NCBI GenBank assembly: GCA_964394335.1
Contig: CAYMVZ010000042.1
Span: 1 to 19,837 of the forward strand
Length of the DNA stretch: 19,837 bases
Origin: an uncultured Nitrospinota bacterium
Lineage (GTDB): Bacteria > Nitrospinota > Nitrospinia > CAJXCL01
Direction: 5' to 3'
Shown: in pieces, positions 7,311 through 16,748 of the stretch
Layout of the letters: every line of letters begins with the position of its first letter
Position numbering within the stretch: position 1 is the stretch's first letter
Program-made: the position numbers and the translations under genes
The notes under the pieces: model-generated
Seen by the model: the letters and a program-made list of their open reading frames with translations, nothing else
Told to the model about the DNA's origin: nothing
The model's database searches: none

Positions 7311-7472
7311 TTGTACGGTAATATTAGATCAGATTCGCCCCGTTAATCGTGACTTTAAATATTTTTTTAGCTTCTCGATTACTTCGAGATTACTCAAGAT
7401 AGAGAAAATTGAATAATGAAGTTATCTTGAAGCAATCGTGAAACAAAAATGAAGTCCGAGTTTTTATTCTGG

Positions 7473-7497
7473 ATGCCCGATGGAAGCACTCGGGCAT
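7473..7497 (+). repeat. REP-like hairpin, variant member of the dispersed family (atgcccga-N9-tcgggcat)
   Basis: atgcccga tggaagcac tcgggcat has the same architecture as the attcccga-taggaacac-tcgggaat copies elsewhere in the window. Confidence 0.6.
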
Positions 7498-7504
7498 GAC
7501 AAAA

Positions 7505-7625
7505 AAGTGATGCGTTGAGGTATGGTAAAAAAGGGGGAACACTCTGGTATGGCAAAAGAGCGTTGCGCTAGGGCATGAACAAAAGAGTGGTGCGTTAGAG
7601 TATGGTAAAAGAGCGTTGCATTCCC
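7505..7625 (+). repeat. degenerate tandem repeats of about 27 bp (4-5 units)
   Basis: The units are gtgatgcgttgaggtatggtaaaaaag, ctctggtatggcaaaagagcgttgcg, ggcatgaacaaaagagtggtgcgttag and agtatggtaaaagagcgttgca. All share the (g)gtatggtaaaag and agcgttgc(g/a) cores. Confidence 0.5.
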
Positions 7626-7743
7626 GCTTGCTCCCGGCATGTCATTCTCGCATGCTTTAAGCGGGAATCCAGACATAAAACGAGTAAATGTCATCACTTC
7701 AAAGATAAGGGTATGTCAAATTAAAAATGAAATAGAAGAGAAG

Positions 7744-9498: not shown

Positions 9499-10083
9499 TT
9501 GAAAACAATTAAAACTACACGTTTACTTATTGCAGATGATCAGAGTTTTTCAAGAGATGCTTTAAAAGACGCATTAATTGAAAAAGGTTTTGATATAGCG
9601 GGGGAAGCAGCTACCGGTAAAGAGGCAATTAAATTAAATAAAAAATTGAAGCCTGATTTGATTTTTATGGACGTAAAAATGCCGGAATTAAACGGGATCG
9701 AAGCATCTCATGAGATTAACTCTAAAAACCCTGTTCCGATAATACTTTTAACTGTAAAAGATGACCGAAGTACAATAGAAAGAGCCAAGTCAGCGGGAGT
9801 AATGGCATATCTTGTTAAACCTTTTAATAAAAAAGAATTGGTTCCCAATATAGAGATTGCCATTAAACGTTTTCATGAGTTTAAAAAAGTGAAAAATGAG
9901 AATGCTGATTTAAAAGCAAAACTAAATGCAAGAAAACTCATAGAAAAGGCAAAAGGAATTCTCATGGAAAAGCATAATATTAATGAACAGGAGGCATTTA
10001 GAATGGTTCAAAAGGCTGCAATGGATAAACATACTTCAATGAAAGAGATTGCAGAGAGCATAATTATGACTGCTGATTTATAG
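9499..10083 (+). CDS. response regulator with receiver domain plus ANTAR RNA-binding antiterminator domain (AmiR/NasT-like)
   Basis: 194 aa with a TTG start and an AAGGAG RBS 5 nt upstream. The receiver domain is intact: DD (IADDQ), phospho-Asp (FMDVKMP), Thr (LLTV) and Lys (LVKPF) are present. The C-terminal KLIEKAKGILMEKHNINEQEAFRMVQKAAMDKHTSMKEIAESII matches the ANTAR helical domain. Confidence 0.85.
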   Translation: MKTIKTTRLLIADDQSFSRDALKDALIEKGFDIAGEAATGKEAIKLNKKLKPDLIFMDVKMPELNGIEASHEINSKNPVPIILLTVKDDRSTIERAKSAGVMAYLVKPFNKKELVPNIEIAIKRFHEFKKVKNENADLKAKLNARKLIEKAKGILMEKHNINEQEAFRMVQKAAMDKHTSMKEIAESIIMTADL

Positions 10084-10124
10084 TACACATACTGTTCAAA
10101 GAAGAGCAGGAATAGAGAAAAAGC

Positions 10125-10180
10125 AAAGGCGCTTTTTAATTGGATCCACTTAAGTGGAGCAATGAAAGCGCCTTTTTTTT
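10125..10180 (+). terminator. strong two-tier intrinsic terminator between the ANTAR regulator gene and amt2
   Basis: The outer stem pairs aaaggcgcttt (10125-10135) with aaagcgccttt (10165-10175). It encloses an inner perfect palindrome tccacttaagtgga (10145-10158) and is followed by T8 (10173-10180). Confidence 0.75.
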
Positions 10181-10185
10181 AGTGT

Positions 10186-10417
10186 TCAGGAATGACATGT
10201 CGGGAATGCCCGTATAGTAAGACGTATGCATTTCAAAATGACAACGCATATGTATGCCAGATTGATATTTTGCACTGTTTTGTCATTCCCAACTTGATTG
10301 GGAATCCAGATAAAAGAATTCCTGGATTCTAACTAAATCTTGTCCTCAACCTGGATTCCCGCTAAGTGCATGCGGGAATGACATGTGGGGAACATGCGGG
10401 ACTGATATGTCAGGAGC
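10186..10417 (+). repeat. cluster of REP/MITE-like repeats (GGGAATGACATGT cores, gtcattccc/gggaatcc inverted units, 67-bp unit at 10351-10417)
   Basis: Contains caggaatgacatgtcgggaatgcccg, gtcattcccaacttgattgggaat, gaatccag...ctggattc, attcccgc-taagtgcat-gcgggaat, and gcgggaatgacatgtgggga followed by acatgcgggactgatatgtcagga. The 67-bp unit recurs at 16641-16709 at about 84% identity. Confidence 0.7.
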
Positions 10418-10442
10418 TTCAATTATTTAGGTCATTAAAAAA

Positions 10443-11764: not shown

Positions 11765-12307
11765 ATGAAATCTTTGCCGGAAGAAGATTCAGTTCGCAGG
11801 CTGCCGAGGCCTGCCAATAAGAAGCAGATTATTATTGCTGTCCTCGCAACGGCTTTTGTTTTGATTATTTTTTATAGCTTTACGTCAGTCTCTTATTATT
11901 ATTCATCGACAAATTATTTTTGCTCGACTCAATGTCATGAAATGGTGCAGCCCTATCAGGAGTATCTTTTGTCCAGCCATTATGACAGCAGGAAAGGTGT
12001 TGTAGCGGATTGCGCCGACTGTCATTTGCCCCCCGGGTTAGTAGATAAGTGGTTTGTAAAAACAAAACAGGGAGTCCATGACTCTCTGGTTCATTTTTTT
12101 GGTGATCCGGAAAATCTGGATCATAATGCGCTTAAAATTTCTGCAAGAAAAAATATTCATCCCGGCGCTTGTATGAAGTGTCATAAAAACCTGTTTCCTT
12201 CGGACTTGCCCCGGGGCGGTTTCAAGGCTCATAAAGCCTTTGAAAATCAGGAAGCTAATAATTGTGTGGATTGCCATGTAAACCTGGTGCATGTTTCAGC
12301 CGGTTAA
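11765..12307 (+). CDS. NapC/NirT/NrfH-family membrane-anchored tetrahaem cytochrome c (quinol dehydrogenase-like)
   Basis: 180 aa with an N-terminal TM anchor (IIIAVLATAFVLIIFYSF). It has four haem-binding motifs: CSTQCHEM (CX3CH, non-canonical), CADCH, CMKCH and CVDCH. It starts 21 nt after the amt2 stop, so the two are probably co-transcribed. Confidence 0.82.
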   Translation: MKSLPEEDSVRRLPRPANKKQIIIAVLATAFVLIIFYSFTSVSYYYSSTNYFCSTQCHEMVQPYQEYLLSSHYDSRKGVVADCADCHLPPGLVDKWFVKTKQGVHDSLVHFFGDPENLDHNALKISARKNIHPGACMKCHKNLFPSDLPRGGFKAHKAFENQEANNCVDCHVNLVHVSAG

Positions 12308-12360
12308 ATGAAAATTGCGGAGTTCAGACTAAGGAAGGCGGATTGTTGCTAACAATGTCC

Positions 12361-12510
12361 GTAAGTTCTCAATAAGTCGGGGTAAGCCAAGGTCCATAAG
12401 TTTGTCATTCCCGAATGTTCCCCGATTAGAGAGTTCGAGGACAAGCTTTATCGGGAATCCAGGAATCAGCTTGACTACTAGATTCCCGATAGGAACGCTC
12501 GGGAATGACA
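12361..12510 (+). repeat. composite REP/MITE-like element with a nested 75-bp insertion (family shared with 15122-15200)
   Basis: gtaagttctcaataagtcggggtaagccaaggtccataagtttgtcattcccga, then an insert at 12415-12489 ending in attcccga, then taggaacgctcgggaatgaca. Removing the insert reconstitutes the hairpin gtcattcccga-N9-tcgggaatgac seen intact at 15169-15199. Confidence 0.75.
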
Positions 12511-12635
12511 AGATAGGGTATAGCCAATAGTGACCTGGCCCTGAGAACAGGTTTTTTGTTTTATAATAAAATTATACTTTACACAGAAGATTCCCAGCAG
12601 CTTGCTTCGGGGAGCTTCAATTGGAGGTTATTTTA

Positions 12636-13934
12636 ATGGAAAACTCTTGTTATAAAAAAAGTAATTTTGCGGGAAGTCCTTCGCAATATTCAATTCGCAA
12701 TATTCAATTCTCAATTTTGCCTGCATTATTCCTCTGCTTATTAGCCTCCATTCTGTTTTCACAAGTGGCTCATGCGGCAAGAACAGAGGGAGAAAGGGAA
12801 ATTAGCAAAAAATGTATCCTTTGTCATCAGGAAATTTCCCCTGGGATCGTGAACGACTGGGAAAAAAGTAATCATGCGAGAAGCGACATTACTTGCATAG
12901 ACTGTCACCGGGCCGACCCGACAGATGCGGATGCATGGAAGCACGAAGGTACTTATATTTCCACTATCGTCAGCCCCAGGGATTGTTCCAAATGCCATCC
13001 CAAAGCAGTGAAAGAGTTTGTTGATTCCAAACATTCCGGAGCCGCTACCTTTTTAAAAGCTGAAGCAGGGGATAGGCATAAAGATAATATTTTGGCATAT
13101 ACAATTGAGGGAGCTGAAGCTGCTGTTGTGGGGTGCGAGAAATGCCACGGTAATGTTGTAAAAGTCAAAAACGGAAAATTTGAGCCAGGCTCCTGGCCGA
13201 ACGGTGGAATTGGCAGGGTAAACCCTGATGGAAGCCGTGGTTCCTGCACCGCCTGTCATACCCGGCATGTCTTTTCCGTTGCTGAGGCCAGAAAGCCGGA
13301 GACTTGCGGTACCTGCCACATGGGGCCCGACCACCCGCATATAGAGATATATCTGGAGTCCAAGCATGGGGTCATTTATTCCAGTGAAAAAGAGAAGTGG
13401 GATTTTGACATTCCGGCAAATTCCTGGGATGTCAAACATTTTCGAGCTCCTACCTGCGCGACATGCCATATGTCCGGCATTGGCAATTTGGAGCCGACTC
13501 ACGATGTTGGAAAGCGTCTTTCATGGGTCTTAAGGTCTCCCCTTTCCATTAAAACCAACGGCTGGCAGGTCAAAAGAGAAGAAATGAAAAAAGTCTGCCT
13601 TTCCTGTCATTCAGATGGATGGGCGGAGGGATATTATTTTCAACTTGATAATGCGATAGCTCTTTATAATGAAGAATATTATAAGCCGGTTAGAAAGGCA
13701 CTGGATGAATTATACGCACTTGGCATATTAACGAAGCAATCATTTGACGAAGAAATTGAGTTCACATGGTTTGAATATTGGCACCATGAAGGGAGAAGAG
13801 CAAGGATGGGTGCAGCCATGATGGGGCCGGATTTTGCCCAGTGGCATGGTTTTTATGAACTGGCTAAAAACCGCCTTAAACTTTTGAATGAGATAAAAAA
13901 AATGAAAAACAAAAAATTGAACTATAAGGAATAA
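12636..13934 (+). CDS. periplasmic octahaem cytochrome c (HAO/OTR-like multihaem family), putative nitrite/hydroxylamine oxidoreductase
   Basis: Eight CXXCH motifs: CILCH, CIDCH, CSKCH, CEKCH, CTACH, CGTCH, CATCH and CLSCH. A signal peptide is present (hydrophobic core ILPALFLCLLASILF, cleavage near AHA-A). The preferred start is the ATG at 12636 with GGAGG 8 nt upstream; the ORF track's TTG at 12621 has no RBS. Confidence 0.8.
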   Translation: MENSCYKKSNFAGSPSQYSIRNIQFSILPALFLCLLASILFSQVAHAARTEGEREISKKCILCHQEISPGIVNDWEKSNHARSDITCIDCHRADPTDADAWKHEGTYISTIVSPRDCSKCHPKAVKEFVDSKHSGAATFLKAEAGDRHKDNILAYTIEGAEAAVVGCEKCHGNVVKVKNGKFEPGSWPNGGIGRVNPDGSRGSCTACHTRHVFSVAEARKPETCGTCHMGPDHPHIEIYLESKHGVIYSSEKEKWDFDIPANSWDVKHFRAPTCATCHMSGIGNLEPTHDVGKRLSWVLRSPLSIKTNGWQVKREEMKKVCLSCHSDGWAEGYYFQLDNAIALYNEEYYKPVRKALDELYALGILTKQSFDEEIEFTWFEYWHHEGRRARMGAAMMGPDFAQWHGFYELAKNRLKLLNEIKKMKNKKLNYKE

Positions 13935-13937
13935 CCT

Positions 13938-15047
13938 ATGACACCGGCACTAAACAGTGAAGAAGCTTACAAAAATGTTTTGAGAGGGTTGTGGAACAAT
14001 CGCAGCGGTACTTATGAAGAATGGGAAACTCTCATTAAGGAACTCCCTCATTATGGAATGACTGAAGAGAAAGCGCGGGCCTTGGAACCAGATGTTAAAG
14101 AATCTCTCGGCGTTGTCGTTCCCTGGTCTATATTCGATAAACCCGGGTTTGAAACTTCAAAAGAAAAGATTGCAAAACGCTTCCTTTTCTTTTCGCTGAG
14201 CTTTTGTTTTTTTTTAGTAATGCTCTGGATTTACCAGAGAGTTGAACCGAAGGAAACTCAGGCCATGCACCCGGTGTTTGCTGAATCCTCTTTAAAGGTA
14301 GAAAAGCAAAGAAGTAATAAAACATTTTTGCCCTTTGACAAAATGGTGGAAATTAAAGGAGGAAACTTTCTGATGGGAAGCAGTGATGGCGACTTCGATG
14401 AAGAGCCGATTCACAGAGTTCATTTACTTCCTTTCCAATTAGCTGGATATGAGGTGACCTACAGTCAATTCCAGGAATTTATTAAAGAAAATCCTCATTG
14501 GGAAAAAGGAAAACCTGGAATGAACGAAGTGGATTTGAATTACCTGAAAGACTGGAATGGAACAGACTTCCCGAAAGGCAGGGAAAACTTCCCTGTTGTT
14601 TATGTAAGCTGGTTTGCTGCTTCAGCCTATGCGTACTGGTTTGGAAGGCGGCTGCCCACAGAATCAGAATGGGAGTATGCCGCAAGAGGAGGATTGAGGG
14701 GAATGCCATATCCCTGGGGAAAAGTATCCGAATTCTGGATCGCAAACATTAAAACAGAGGGTTTAATAAATATGCCCAAACCTGTCGGCAATTACAGCAT
14801 GAACGGGTTTAGAATTTTTGACATGGCGGGAAACGTCAGAGAATGGACAGCCGATGGTTATTCCCTTTATAATCCAGCAGAACAAAGAAATCCTCAAATG
14901 ACTACGAATCAAAGGTATAAAGTTGTCAGGGGAGGGTCCTGGGAAACTTTTGGGAGGGACTCCAGGGTATCGAAAAGGTGGAGGGAACGCCCAAATCATT
15001 GCGGGCCTGATATAGGTTTTCGCGTTGCAACCGATATTTATAGCTGA
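13938..15047 (+). CDS. FGE-sulfatase/SUMF1-domain membrane protein (NirV-like)
   Basis: 369 aa. The ATG is 3 nt after the octahaem stop, with the AAGGA RBS overlapping that stop, indicating translational coupling. It has an N-terminal cytoplasmic region, one TM helix (FLFFSLSFCFFLVMLWIY), and a C-terminal FGE/SUMF1 domain (GGNFLMGS...PVVYVSWFAASAYAYWFGRRLPTESEWEYAARGG...GNVREW...VVRGGSW...GFRVA). Confidence 0.8.
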   Translation: MTPALNSEEAYKNVLRGLWNNRSGTYEEWETLIKELPHYGMTEEKARALEPDVKESLGVVVPWSIFDKPGFETSKEKIAKRFLFFSLSFCFFLVMLWIYQRVEPKETQAMHPVFAESSLKVEKQRSNKTFLPFDKMVEIKGGNFLMGSSDGDFDEEPIHRVHLLPFQLAGYEVTYSQFQEFIKENPHWEKGKPGMNEVDLNYLKDWNGTDFPKGRENFPVVYVSWFAASAYAYWFGRRLPTESEWEYAARGGLRGMPYPWGKVSEFWIANIKTEGLINMPKPVGNYSMNGFRIFDMAGNVREWTADGYSLYNPAEQRNPQMTTNQRYKVVRGGSWETFGRDSRVSKRWRERPNHCGPDIGFRVATDIYS

Positions 15048-15121: not shown

Positions 15122-15200
15122 GTAAGTTCTCAATAACAAAGTCGGGGTAAGCCAGGGTCCCTATGTTTGTCATTCCCGATAGGAACACTCGGGAATGACA
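15122..15200 (+). repeat. REP/MITE-like element, intact copy (gtaagttctcaataa...gtcattcccga-taggaacac-tcgggaatgac)
   Basis: 79 bp, near-identical to the flanks of the 12361-12510 copy but without the 75-bp insert. It contains a perfect 11-bp-stem hairpin at 15169-15199. Confidence 0.75.
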
Positions 15201-15228
15201 GGAAGGGTGATCTCCTCAACTCTGTATA

Positions 15229-15272
15229 AGGCGCTGTAAAAAGCAAAAACTTAACAGCGCCTAAACTTTTTG
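15229..15272 (+). terminator. candidate intrinsic terminator ending the amt2-cytochrome-FGE transcription unit
   Basis: A 9-bp GC-rich stem: aggcgctgt (15229-15237) paired with acagcgcct (15254-15262), with a 16-nt A-rich loop, followed by aaaCTTTTT. Confidence 0.45.
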
Positions 15273-15325
15273 AGATGTTACAACTATGTAATAAAAATTA
15301 TTAATTTTTTTTGGAGGAAATAATA

Positions 15326-16570: not shown

Positions 16571-16748
16571 CGGGAATGACCGTCTTCCTCCTCTGTCATG
16601 CCCGAGTGTTCCTATCGGGCATCTATATTCACAACTTGGTCTGGATTCCCGATAAATGCATTCTGGAATGACATGTGGGGAGCATTCGGGATTGACATGC
16701 TGGGAGTACGGGAATGACATGTTCCTGGGGCGGGAGTGATATTGTGGA
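16571..16748 (+). repeat. cluster of REP/MITE-like repeats (inverted-orientation hairpin 16598-16622; 67-bp unit 16641-16709; GGGAATGACATGT cores)
   Basis: cgggaatgac...gtcatgcccg, then atgcccga-gtgttccta-tcgggcat (the reverse-complement orientation of the family hairpin), then ctggattcccgataaatgcattctggaatgacatgtggggagcattcgggattgacatgctgggagtac, then gggaatgacatgttcctggggcggg. Confidence 0.7.

Follow-up and report, generated by a model that had tools for sequence, protein, structure and literature searches.

The locus examined here raises the question of whether a hairpin interrupted by a short insertion marks a mobile element caught in the act. In the window, as we call the 19,837-nt stretch of DNA from an uncultured Nitrospinota bacterium that was analysed, a flank-plus-hairpin sequence is present twice; one hairpin, at 12404-12509, is split by 75 bp, whereas its sibling at 15169-15199 is uninterrupted. 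The window encodes a nitrogen-assimilation cluster with P-II, Amt, and glutamine synthetase first among its listed genes. Both copies lie just 3′ of a stop codon, in spacers between co-directional genes. MAG proteins that match the NapC/NirT protein at 85% and 57-61% identity carry Nitrospinota/Nitrospinae names, and identical copies are present in Tara and other marine metagenomes. The amt genes, the multihaem cytochromes, and a GC content of 41% had at first suggested an anammox planctomycete, an idea rejected in view of these names.

The split itself is as first described: GTCATTCCCGA stands at 12404-12414 and TAGGAACGCTCGGGAATGAC at 12490-12509, with 75 bp between them. The intervening segment, 12415-12489, ends in ATTCCCGA (12482-12489), which repeats 12407-12414, and it contains the sequence CCCGAT...ATCGGG. 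The flanks, which the preliminary description called identical, agree in only 78 of 88 columns (89%) when 12361-12520 minus the 75 bp is compared with 15122-15208, and a local alignment of these stretches gives five substitutions and two indels, of 4 nt (ACAA) and 1 nt. The hairpin at 15169-15199 differs from the one composed of the 12404 and 12490 halves by a single loop substitution, G to A. Allowing up to one mismatch, GTCATTCCCGA occurs 16 times against an expectation of 0.22, far more often than by chance.

When all ATTCCC/GGGAAT sites were listed with their flanks, a rule became apparent: GTCAT stands on one side of the hairpin and ATCCAG, ATCTAG, or ATCTAT on the other. Since the GTCAT and ATCYRG flanks do not pair together, each hairpin has an orientation. 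The rule is obeyed by nine of ten hairpins (Table 1), and the sole exception is 15169-15199, where GTCAT is found on both sides. This copy, regarded earlier as the intact one, is indeed uninterrupted, but its symmetry sets it apart and we read it as a collapsed doublet. Conversely, 12404-12509 is not a split hairpin; it consists of two canonical units of the type of the Neisseria Transformation Sequence (NTS) and dRS3, arranged tail to tail. The loop of unit 2 belongs to a family shared with 7469-7500, 16595-16626, and 15169-15199.

Table 1 Repeat units, related features, and genes of the window
Feature	Position	Strand	Description
Unit pair	7469-7672		Reverse unit 7469-7500, forward unit 7641-7672 (extra left arm 7617-7629), 80-nt tandem repeat between
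Tail-to-tail doublet	10282-10382		Forward unit 10282-10309, reverse unit 10351-10382
Left flank, "RS-like" GTAAGTTCTCAATAAGTCGGGGTAAGCCAAGGTCCATAAGTTT	12361-12403	+	Shared with 15122-15168; flank family GTAAGTTCTCAATAA...
Unit 1, NTS-like, long loop	12404-12463	+	Matches the relaxed pattern GTCAT..ATCYRG
Parts of unit 1	12404-12463	+	GTC, ATTCCCGA (12407-12414), 36-nt loop (12415-12450), TCGGGAAT (12451-12458), CCAGG
75-bp "insert"	12415-12489		Loop, right arm, and CCAGG of unit 1; spacer; CTAG flank and left arm of unit 2
Spacer AATCAGCTTGACTA, 14 nt	12464-12477		Collinear with the spacers of doublets 10282-10382 and 16595-16672
Unit 2, NTS-like, 9-nt loop	12478-12509	-	Relaxed NTS pattern; minus strand reads GTCATTCCCGA GCGTTCCTA TCGGGAATCTAG
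Unit 2, forward reading	12478-12509		CTAG-ATTCCCGA-TAGGAACGC-TCGGGAAT-GAC
Second flank-plus-hairpin copy	15122-15208	+	Hairpin 15169-15199 symmetric, GTCAT on both sides
Tail-to-tail doublet	16595-16672		Forward unit 16595-16626 (ATGCCCGA/TCGGGCAT), 14-nt spacer, reverse unit 16641-16672
Extra right arms (CGGGAATGACATGTGGGGAGCAT...)	16661-16740	+	Period about 24 nt
Hairpins obeying the flank rule	7469-7500, 7641-7672, 10282-10309, 10351-10382, 12404-12463, 12478-12509, 16595-16626, 16641-16672		Also the solo unit of contig L010
ATTCCC/GGGAAT spacing of 9	10285/10300
ATTCCC/GGGAAT spacing of 13	10355/10374, 12482/12501, 15172/15191
ATTCCC/GGGAAT spacing of 40	12407/12453
OmpL-like porin			Nitrogen-assimilation cluster
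ANTAR response regulator	9499-10083		Directly upstream of the amt-NapC/NirT-multihaem operon
Second Amt			Nitrogen-assimilation cluster
NapC/NirT tetrahaem cytochrome	11765-12307
Multihaem cytochrome	12636-13934
FGE-sulfatase-like protein	13938-15047
Band-7 protein and hydantoinase/oxoprolinase			Nitrogen-assimilation cluster
(TTCCCRNAGCTTGCTKC)GGGGAGCTTCAAYT sites, window	10405-10425, 12588-12622
(TTCCCRNAGCTTGCTKC)GGGGAGCTTCAAYT site, contig L010	~1418-1440	-
(TTCCCRNAGCTTGCTKC)GGGGAGCTTCAAYT site, contig L012	~13128-13160

This anatomy changes the meaning of the 75-bp segment. It is not self-contained, as only the right arm of one unit lies in it, followed by a spacer and by the next unit's flank and left arm. 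Terminal inverted repeats were found in none of the nine registers that the 8-bp repeat permits, with at most 6 of 15 terminal positions complementary. The 8-bp direct repeat at its borders is present as claimed, but it is not independent evidence of transposition because ATTCCCGA is the left stem arm of the family, so that any adjacent pair of units of this subtype would show an 8-bp "duplication". ATTCCCGA occurs at 12407, 12482, 15172, and 16645, and its complement TCGGGAAT at 10200, 12451, 12499, and 15189. With a duplication that is a stem arm, no terminal inverted repeats, and a segment that is not self-contained, the idea of a non-autonomous element inserted in a sibling copy is not supported.

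The pairing within unit 1 is further supported by a Tara contig (L010), recovered by scanning a metagenome collection with the core of the 75-bp segment. It carries a solo hairpin, GTCATTCCCGC-ATG...CGAGGACAAGTTTA-GCGGGAATCCAGGAAT, which has both flanks in common with unit 1, as well as the loop frame ATG...CGAGGACAAG-TTTA, and its closing pair is compensatory relative to unit 1 (GC..GC versus GA..TC). Since this hairpin stands alone, has two arms of its own, and is closed by a compensatory pair, the arm at 12404-12414 belongs with 12451-12458 as one module. Long-loop units were also seen in two unrelated contigs of a viral collection (L072 and L083), with an inner CCCCGA...TCGGGG hairpin followed by ACAAGTTT. 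As single-stranded DNA, the whole doublet is predicted to fold into a nested hairpin (dG -27.7 kcal/mol, z = -6.7) with an outer stem of 13 bp, TTGTCATTCCCGA/TCGGGAATGACAA, and an inner stem of 12-13 bp, ATCGGGAATCCAG/CTAGATTCCCGAT.

The doublet is one of several in the window. Units are confined to five spacers at 7.4-16.8 kb, namely the porin/ANTAR/amt/cytochrome/Band-7 spacers, where three doublets and a lone unit are found. Across 36.4 contiguous kb of the same population (L021, the window, and L020 merged), NTS-like units are absent from the 10 kb upstream and the 7 kb downstream of this segment. The doublets 10282-10382, 12404-12509, and 16595-16672 are collinear in a MAFFT alignment, in which the 15169 hairpin shows GTC and, beyond a gap, ATTCCCGATAGG... 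A degenerate copy of the unit 1 core, GAGGACAAG..GAATCCAGGAAT, lies on the minus strand at 10318-10352, inside the spacer of the 10282-10382 doublet. In two hairpins, 7473-7497 and 16598-16622, the stem variant ATGCCCGA/TCGGGCAT replaces ATTCCCGA/TCGGGAAT, and these compensatory variants indicate that stem pairing is maintained. Arrays of right half-sites (CGGGAATGACATG...) without a partner arm occur at 10185-10215, 10371-10416, and 16661-16740, with a period of about 24 nt; Neisseria-type arrays on another contig (L055) have the same layout, with one more right arm about 24 nt beyond a unit. The glnA-porin spacer also holds, at 7499-7613, an 80-nt tandem duplication with 83% identity over the detected 35-nt repeat.

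The units can be placed in a known family. NTS, CGTCATTCCCGCGMAVGCGGGAATCYRG, extends dRS3 with oriented non-palindromic flanks (PMC11893778, Nat Commun 2025). It is bound and cut, as single-stranded DNA only, by SsnA, a 94-aa GIY-YIG protein (cd10448); the C that directly follows the palindrome matters most for binding, and cleavage depends on the three bases before it, and the cut falls a few nucleotides 5′ of NTS (PMC11893778). NTS-like "Ssn-related motifs" (SRM) are found across phyla, often flanking ssn genes (PMC11893778). The window units share with them the palindrome core ATTCCC...GGGAAT, the oriented flanks GTCAT (5′) and ATC-YRG (3′) with the critical C after the palindrome, a clustered intergenic location near particular genes, the predicted single-stranded DNA hairpin, and an occurrence across phyla. 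They differ in having stems extended by a G-A/T-C or G-C/G-C pair, loops of 5-9 nt or 36 nt instead of 4-6 nt, and a marine Nitrospinota-like host. Six units, including both halves of 12404-12509, match GTCAT[TG]CC[CA]..[TG]GG[AC]ATC[CT][AG]G. The strict 28-nt NTS consensus has 0 matches in the merged 36.4-kb region, the loops being longer and the closing pair different. The published SRM pattern is matched by two units (7640-7672 on the plus strand and 10351-10383 on the minus strand) against 0.02 expected in shuffles, and the GA/TC-closed units, those of 12404-12509 among them, fail it at one or two positions. The wider family is widespread among bacteria: a scan of the viral collection with GATTCCCG-N6-36-CGGGAATGAC returned at least 120 stretches, on contigs of 35%-72% GC, and most of those listed read CTGGATTCCCGCCTKCGCGGGAATGAC. 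The repeats of the window are NTS/SRM-type hairpins in an array resembling the neisserial intergenic mosaic elements (NIME), a known kind of sequence that here occurs in a marine Nitrospinota-like genome.

By analogy with Neisseria, the window units are putative substrates of an Ssn-type GIY-YIG single-strand DNA nuclease, which would recognise them as single-stranded DNA hairpins and whose gene would lie outside the 36 kb. Among the genes called there, none is an ssn/GIY-YIG gene, a pattern search of all fetched viral loci returned no GIY-YIG gene, and the ORFs between two NTS units on one contig (L035) have no GIY-YIG motif. A query with a GIY-YIG consensus, which served only as a lead to PF01541 proteins, gave more than 8000 of these with about 95 aa. 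One of them, a GIY-YIG protein of a Rhodocyclaceae MAG (P0076), is encoded by a gene that an exact NTS precedes, 4 nt from the start codon, and that is immediately followed by a tail-to-tail doublet, GTCATTCCCGCGAATGCGGGAATCCAT-caacagt-CTGGATTCCGGG...CCCGGAATGAC; the published gene-repeat association is thus reproduced in this MAG. The Neisseria-type contig L055 has 13 exact NTS matches. The symmetric hairpin at 15169 has G and not C after the palindrome on both strands, and is therefore predicted to be a poor Ssn substrate.

The preliminary description saw recent activity at this site, and the population data point the other way. Seven contigs from different samples, all encoding an identical NapC/NirT protein, have the composite at 12404-12509 in identical form (7/7), and all same-population contigs that reach the second site have the identical single hairpin. 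In relatives with the same gene order, hairpins of this kind are found at neither site nor elsewhere in up to ~20 kb of syntenic sequence; these repeat-free relatives share 87% (L025-L030), 85% (L012-L017), 83% (L031), and 81% (L018) amino-acid identity. Their spacers in the same operon are 17-190 nt long and have no such hairpin, and the left flank 12361-12403 is absent from their orthologous spacers. The left-flank sequence AAGTCGGGGTAAGCCANGGTCC had 0 matches in a scan of viral contigs. A comparison of strains for empty and filled sites, as had been suggested, gave no informative intermediate, as the same-population contigs are all identical and the relatives are without the whole repeat block. 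Since the copies within the population are identical and the relatives lack these hairpins, the array is lineage-specific and fixed. The arrays arose after the split from relatives at ~85-87% protein identity. The two copies differ in about 11% of columns, the seven independent assemblies agree, and no polymorphic state was found, and recent activity is thus not indicated.

The 75-bp segment was also sought elsewhere. The insert-core pattern GAGGACAAG-N7-11-GAATCCAGGAAT had two chance matches, in Nanohaloarchaea and Pirellulaceae, in a genome collection from which the locus of the window was not recovered, and one chance match plus L010 in a metagenome collection from which it was likewise not recovered. 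No further copy of the segment with an independent target duplication was found in these collection scans, which did not cover the present genome, and the negative result thus weighs little.

What then separates the two copies is most likely ordinary change in the length of a repeat array, and not a jumping element caught midway. A mosaic, NIME-like array of such units would have colonised five intergenic spacers in the nitrogen-assimilation cluster, and the 75-bp difference would amount to one unit plus its spacer, bounded by the ATTCCCGA arm that both units carry. Array length would then change by slipped-strand mispairing of the 8-nt arms or by their recombination, a process that the nested hairpin of the doublet may favor. 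Slipped-strand mispairing at palindromes is a familiar phenomenon, and such structures promote deletion between flanking short direct repeats. We consider it probable, from the family anatomy, that the doublet is ancestral to both copies and that 15169-15199 is a doublet collapsed by deletion between ATTCCCGA arms, which would have joined the unit 1 left arm to the loop of unit 2 and the right arm that follows it. The preliminary description had offered recombination between repeat units as a second option; arm-to-arm recombination or slippage does fit, although the polarity it assumed is probably reversed, with a loss at 15169 in place of a gain at 12415.

Several observations bear on this direction. 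Among the four hairpins with the loop TRGRARCRC, a CYRG-type flank is found in 7469-7500, 12478-12509, and 16595-16626, and GTCAT on both sides only in 15169-15199. A similar hairpin on an unrelated contig (L241) is asymmetric too. On other contigs, 226 distinct ATTCCCG-N4-12-CGGGAAT hairpins comprise 102 with GTC/CYRG flanks, 47 with GTC/other, and 0 with GTC/GTC. Across all fetched loci, adjacent units are most often arranged tail to tail (FR 33, RF 13, FF 7, RR 7), a count dominated by a few non-independent Neisseria-type loci. A deletion between ATTCCCGA arms yields exactly the 15169-15199 hairpin with its shared left flank, whereas the reverse event must make two canonical units out of an otherwise unseen symmetric form, and loss is therefore favored over gain. 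As neither locus offers an intermediate state, the direction is drawn from the anatomy of the family.

It is possible, though unlikely, that the change went the other way, with a single symmetric hairpin as the ancestor and a unit gained at 12404-12509 through the ATTCCCGA arm by unequal recombination or gene conversion with another array. The 8-nt arm is common to several possible donor units, a related core sequence lies in the spacer of the 10282-10382 doublet, and published NIME arrays grow as well as shrink (PMC1797815). A gain needs a GTCAT/GTCAT starting form, however, which is met in 0 of the 226 hairpins elsewhere and in no other hairpin of the window, and two perfectly canonical oriented units would have to arise by chance. 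Transposition of a ~67-bp non-autonomous element into the stem-loop junction of the sibling, with duplication of 8 bp of target, was the main reading of the preliminary description, and the exact 8-bp direct repeat at both junctions of otherwise collinear copies is what one would expect from it. We regard it as very unlikely: the supposed element has no terminal inverted repeats in any register and only one stem arm, so is not a canonical unit, the duplicated 8 bp are the stem arm of the family, and the one full-length relative of the core seen elsewhere, in L010, forms a complete hairpin from arms of its own, with no duplication beside it. Moreover, the published Ssn cut lies a few nucleotides 5′ of NTS and not at the stem-loop junction (PMC11893778), and neither a transposase nor an ssn gene is present within 36 kb. 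A variant in which NTS-like units are actively mobile and the 75 bp reflect hairpin-targeted gain of a unit in a sibling hairpin, as a footprint of Ssn-associated repeat spread, is very improbable in our view. Were it true, the spread of Ssn-associated repeats, so far only hypothesised in the literature, would have a sequence footprint.

A different kind of explanation would place selection on RNA, with the repeats acting as an intercistronic or 3′-UTR stabiliser or attenuator between the NapC/NirT-like and multihaem genes and the 75 bp as a functional elaboration. Both copies do sit after a stop codon and before the next gene, a GC-rich inverted repeat with a T run follows one copy at 15232-15277, and a shorter and weaker inverted repeat, not called by the consensus terminator scan, follows the other at 12535-12559; the promoter and terminator scan of the spacer returned nothing. 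The RNA fold of 12340-12565 is also stronger than that of shuffles (z = -3.8), and the ATGCCCGA/TCGGGCAT variants are compensatory. Against this, no Rfam family matches, with nothing at the repeats at the gathering threshold or at E ≤ 1. The same operon in relatives, with its spacers of 17-190 nt, is without any such hairpin, which is therefore dispensable. The units run both with and against transcription, and their conserved non-pairing flanks point to protein recognition of DNA (PMC11893778). A selected RNA element is thus improbable, but the intercistronic hairpins may have an RNA-level side effect.

Length change of an array of NTS/SRM-type units accords with what is known of NIMEs. In these dRS3-RS-dRS3 arrays, the number of repeats varies between strains (PMC1797815), and NIMEs were stated in 2007 to be absent outside Neisseria (PMC1797815). 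The window resembles them in its intergenic arrays of hairpins in alternating orientation, with spacers of 14-115 bp that are in part themselves repeated, in the extra single arm ~24 nt after a unit (as in L055), and in a variable unit number, the array length differing between copies. It departs from them in that ATTCCC and GGGAAT are separated by N9, N13, or N40 instead of the N8 of dRS3, in that the arrays are short, with one or two units per spacer, and in that the organism is not Neisseria. REP/BIME and REPIN sequences are likewise short extragenic palindromes with an orienting flank, sited between convergent or co-directional genes and changing in copy number by whole units; a REPIN is an inverted doublet that folds into one long hairpin, as the doublet of the window is predicted to do. 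However, the window units lack a GTAG-type tetranucleotide, and no RAYT (IS200/IS605-like, Y1 transposase) gene was found within 36 kb. REPIN/RAYT systems use a Y1 transposase, whereas a GIY-YIG nuclease is proposed in the literature for NTS-type repeats. MITEs, such as Correia elements, likewise are small non-coding repeats whose junctions appear to carry a short direct repeat, but the 75-bp segment has no terminal inverted repeats and its direct repeat belongs to the unit itself. The window holds a single "filled" site, and independent insertions were not found in the collection scans, in which this genome was not covered.

The analysis removes a false lead, as the site is very probably not a fresh nested transposition, and NIME-like mosaic arrays of NTS/dRS3-type hairpins are now recorded from an uncultured lineage of marine Nitrospinota-like bacteria. 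Published search patterns largely miss the doublets, the extra half-site arrays, and the long-loop variants among them, and the known sequence space of Ssn-related motifs is slightly widened. In the window, moreover, a doublet and a symmetric, collapsed hairpin without the critical flanking C form a natural allele pair that could serve to test the substrate rules of Ssn. In Neisseria, NTS are published to cluster around membrane-protein genes, which the clustering of units here recalls. It is a remote possibility that the dense array near the amt, porin, and cytochrome genes acts as a recombination hot spot of the nitrogen-assimilation locus in an uncultured marine nitrite oxidiser; the model for this idea is the recombination role proposed for NIME arrays near Neisseria surface-protein genes.

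Some other features of the window were noted. The leader at 10084-10442 has a terminator-like hairpin (10125-10180) followed by repeat units, and a canonical ANTAR dual-hexaloop target was not recognised in it. The units were considered as dual-hairpin targets of the ANTAR regulator encoded at 9499-10083 and rejected, as their loops have 9 nt and are not hexaloops and they occur in both orientations. Within a TPR-protein gene (151-723), a 197-nt direct repeat (218-414 and 470-666, 84% identity) is probably a duplication of TPR modules. Copies of the motif (TTCCCRNAGCTTGCTKC)GGGGAGCTTCAAYT stand 10-70 nt ahead of start codons and are oriented like the gene, which is the multihaem gene or the second amt in the window and the Band-7 gene in the 85% relative; this motif may be another leader element, mobile or regulatory. 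Finally, just after the NapC/NirT stop codon, 12308-12352 of the window has 19 nt more (GTTCAGACTAAGGAAGGCG) than the corresponding 10544-10575 of L012, and this extra sequence lies inside an otherwise conserved small hairpin (GGATTGTTGCTAACAATGTCC).
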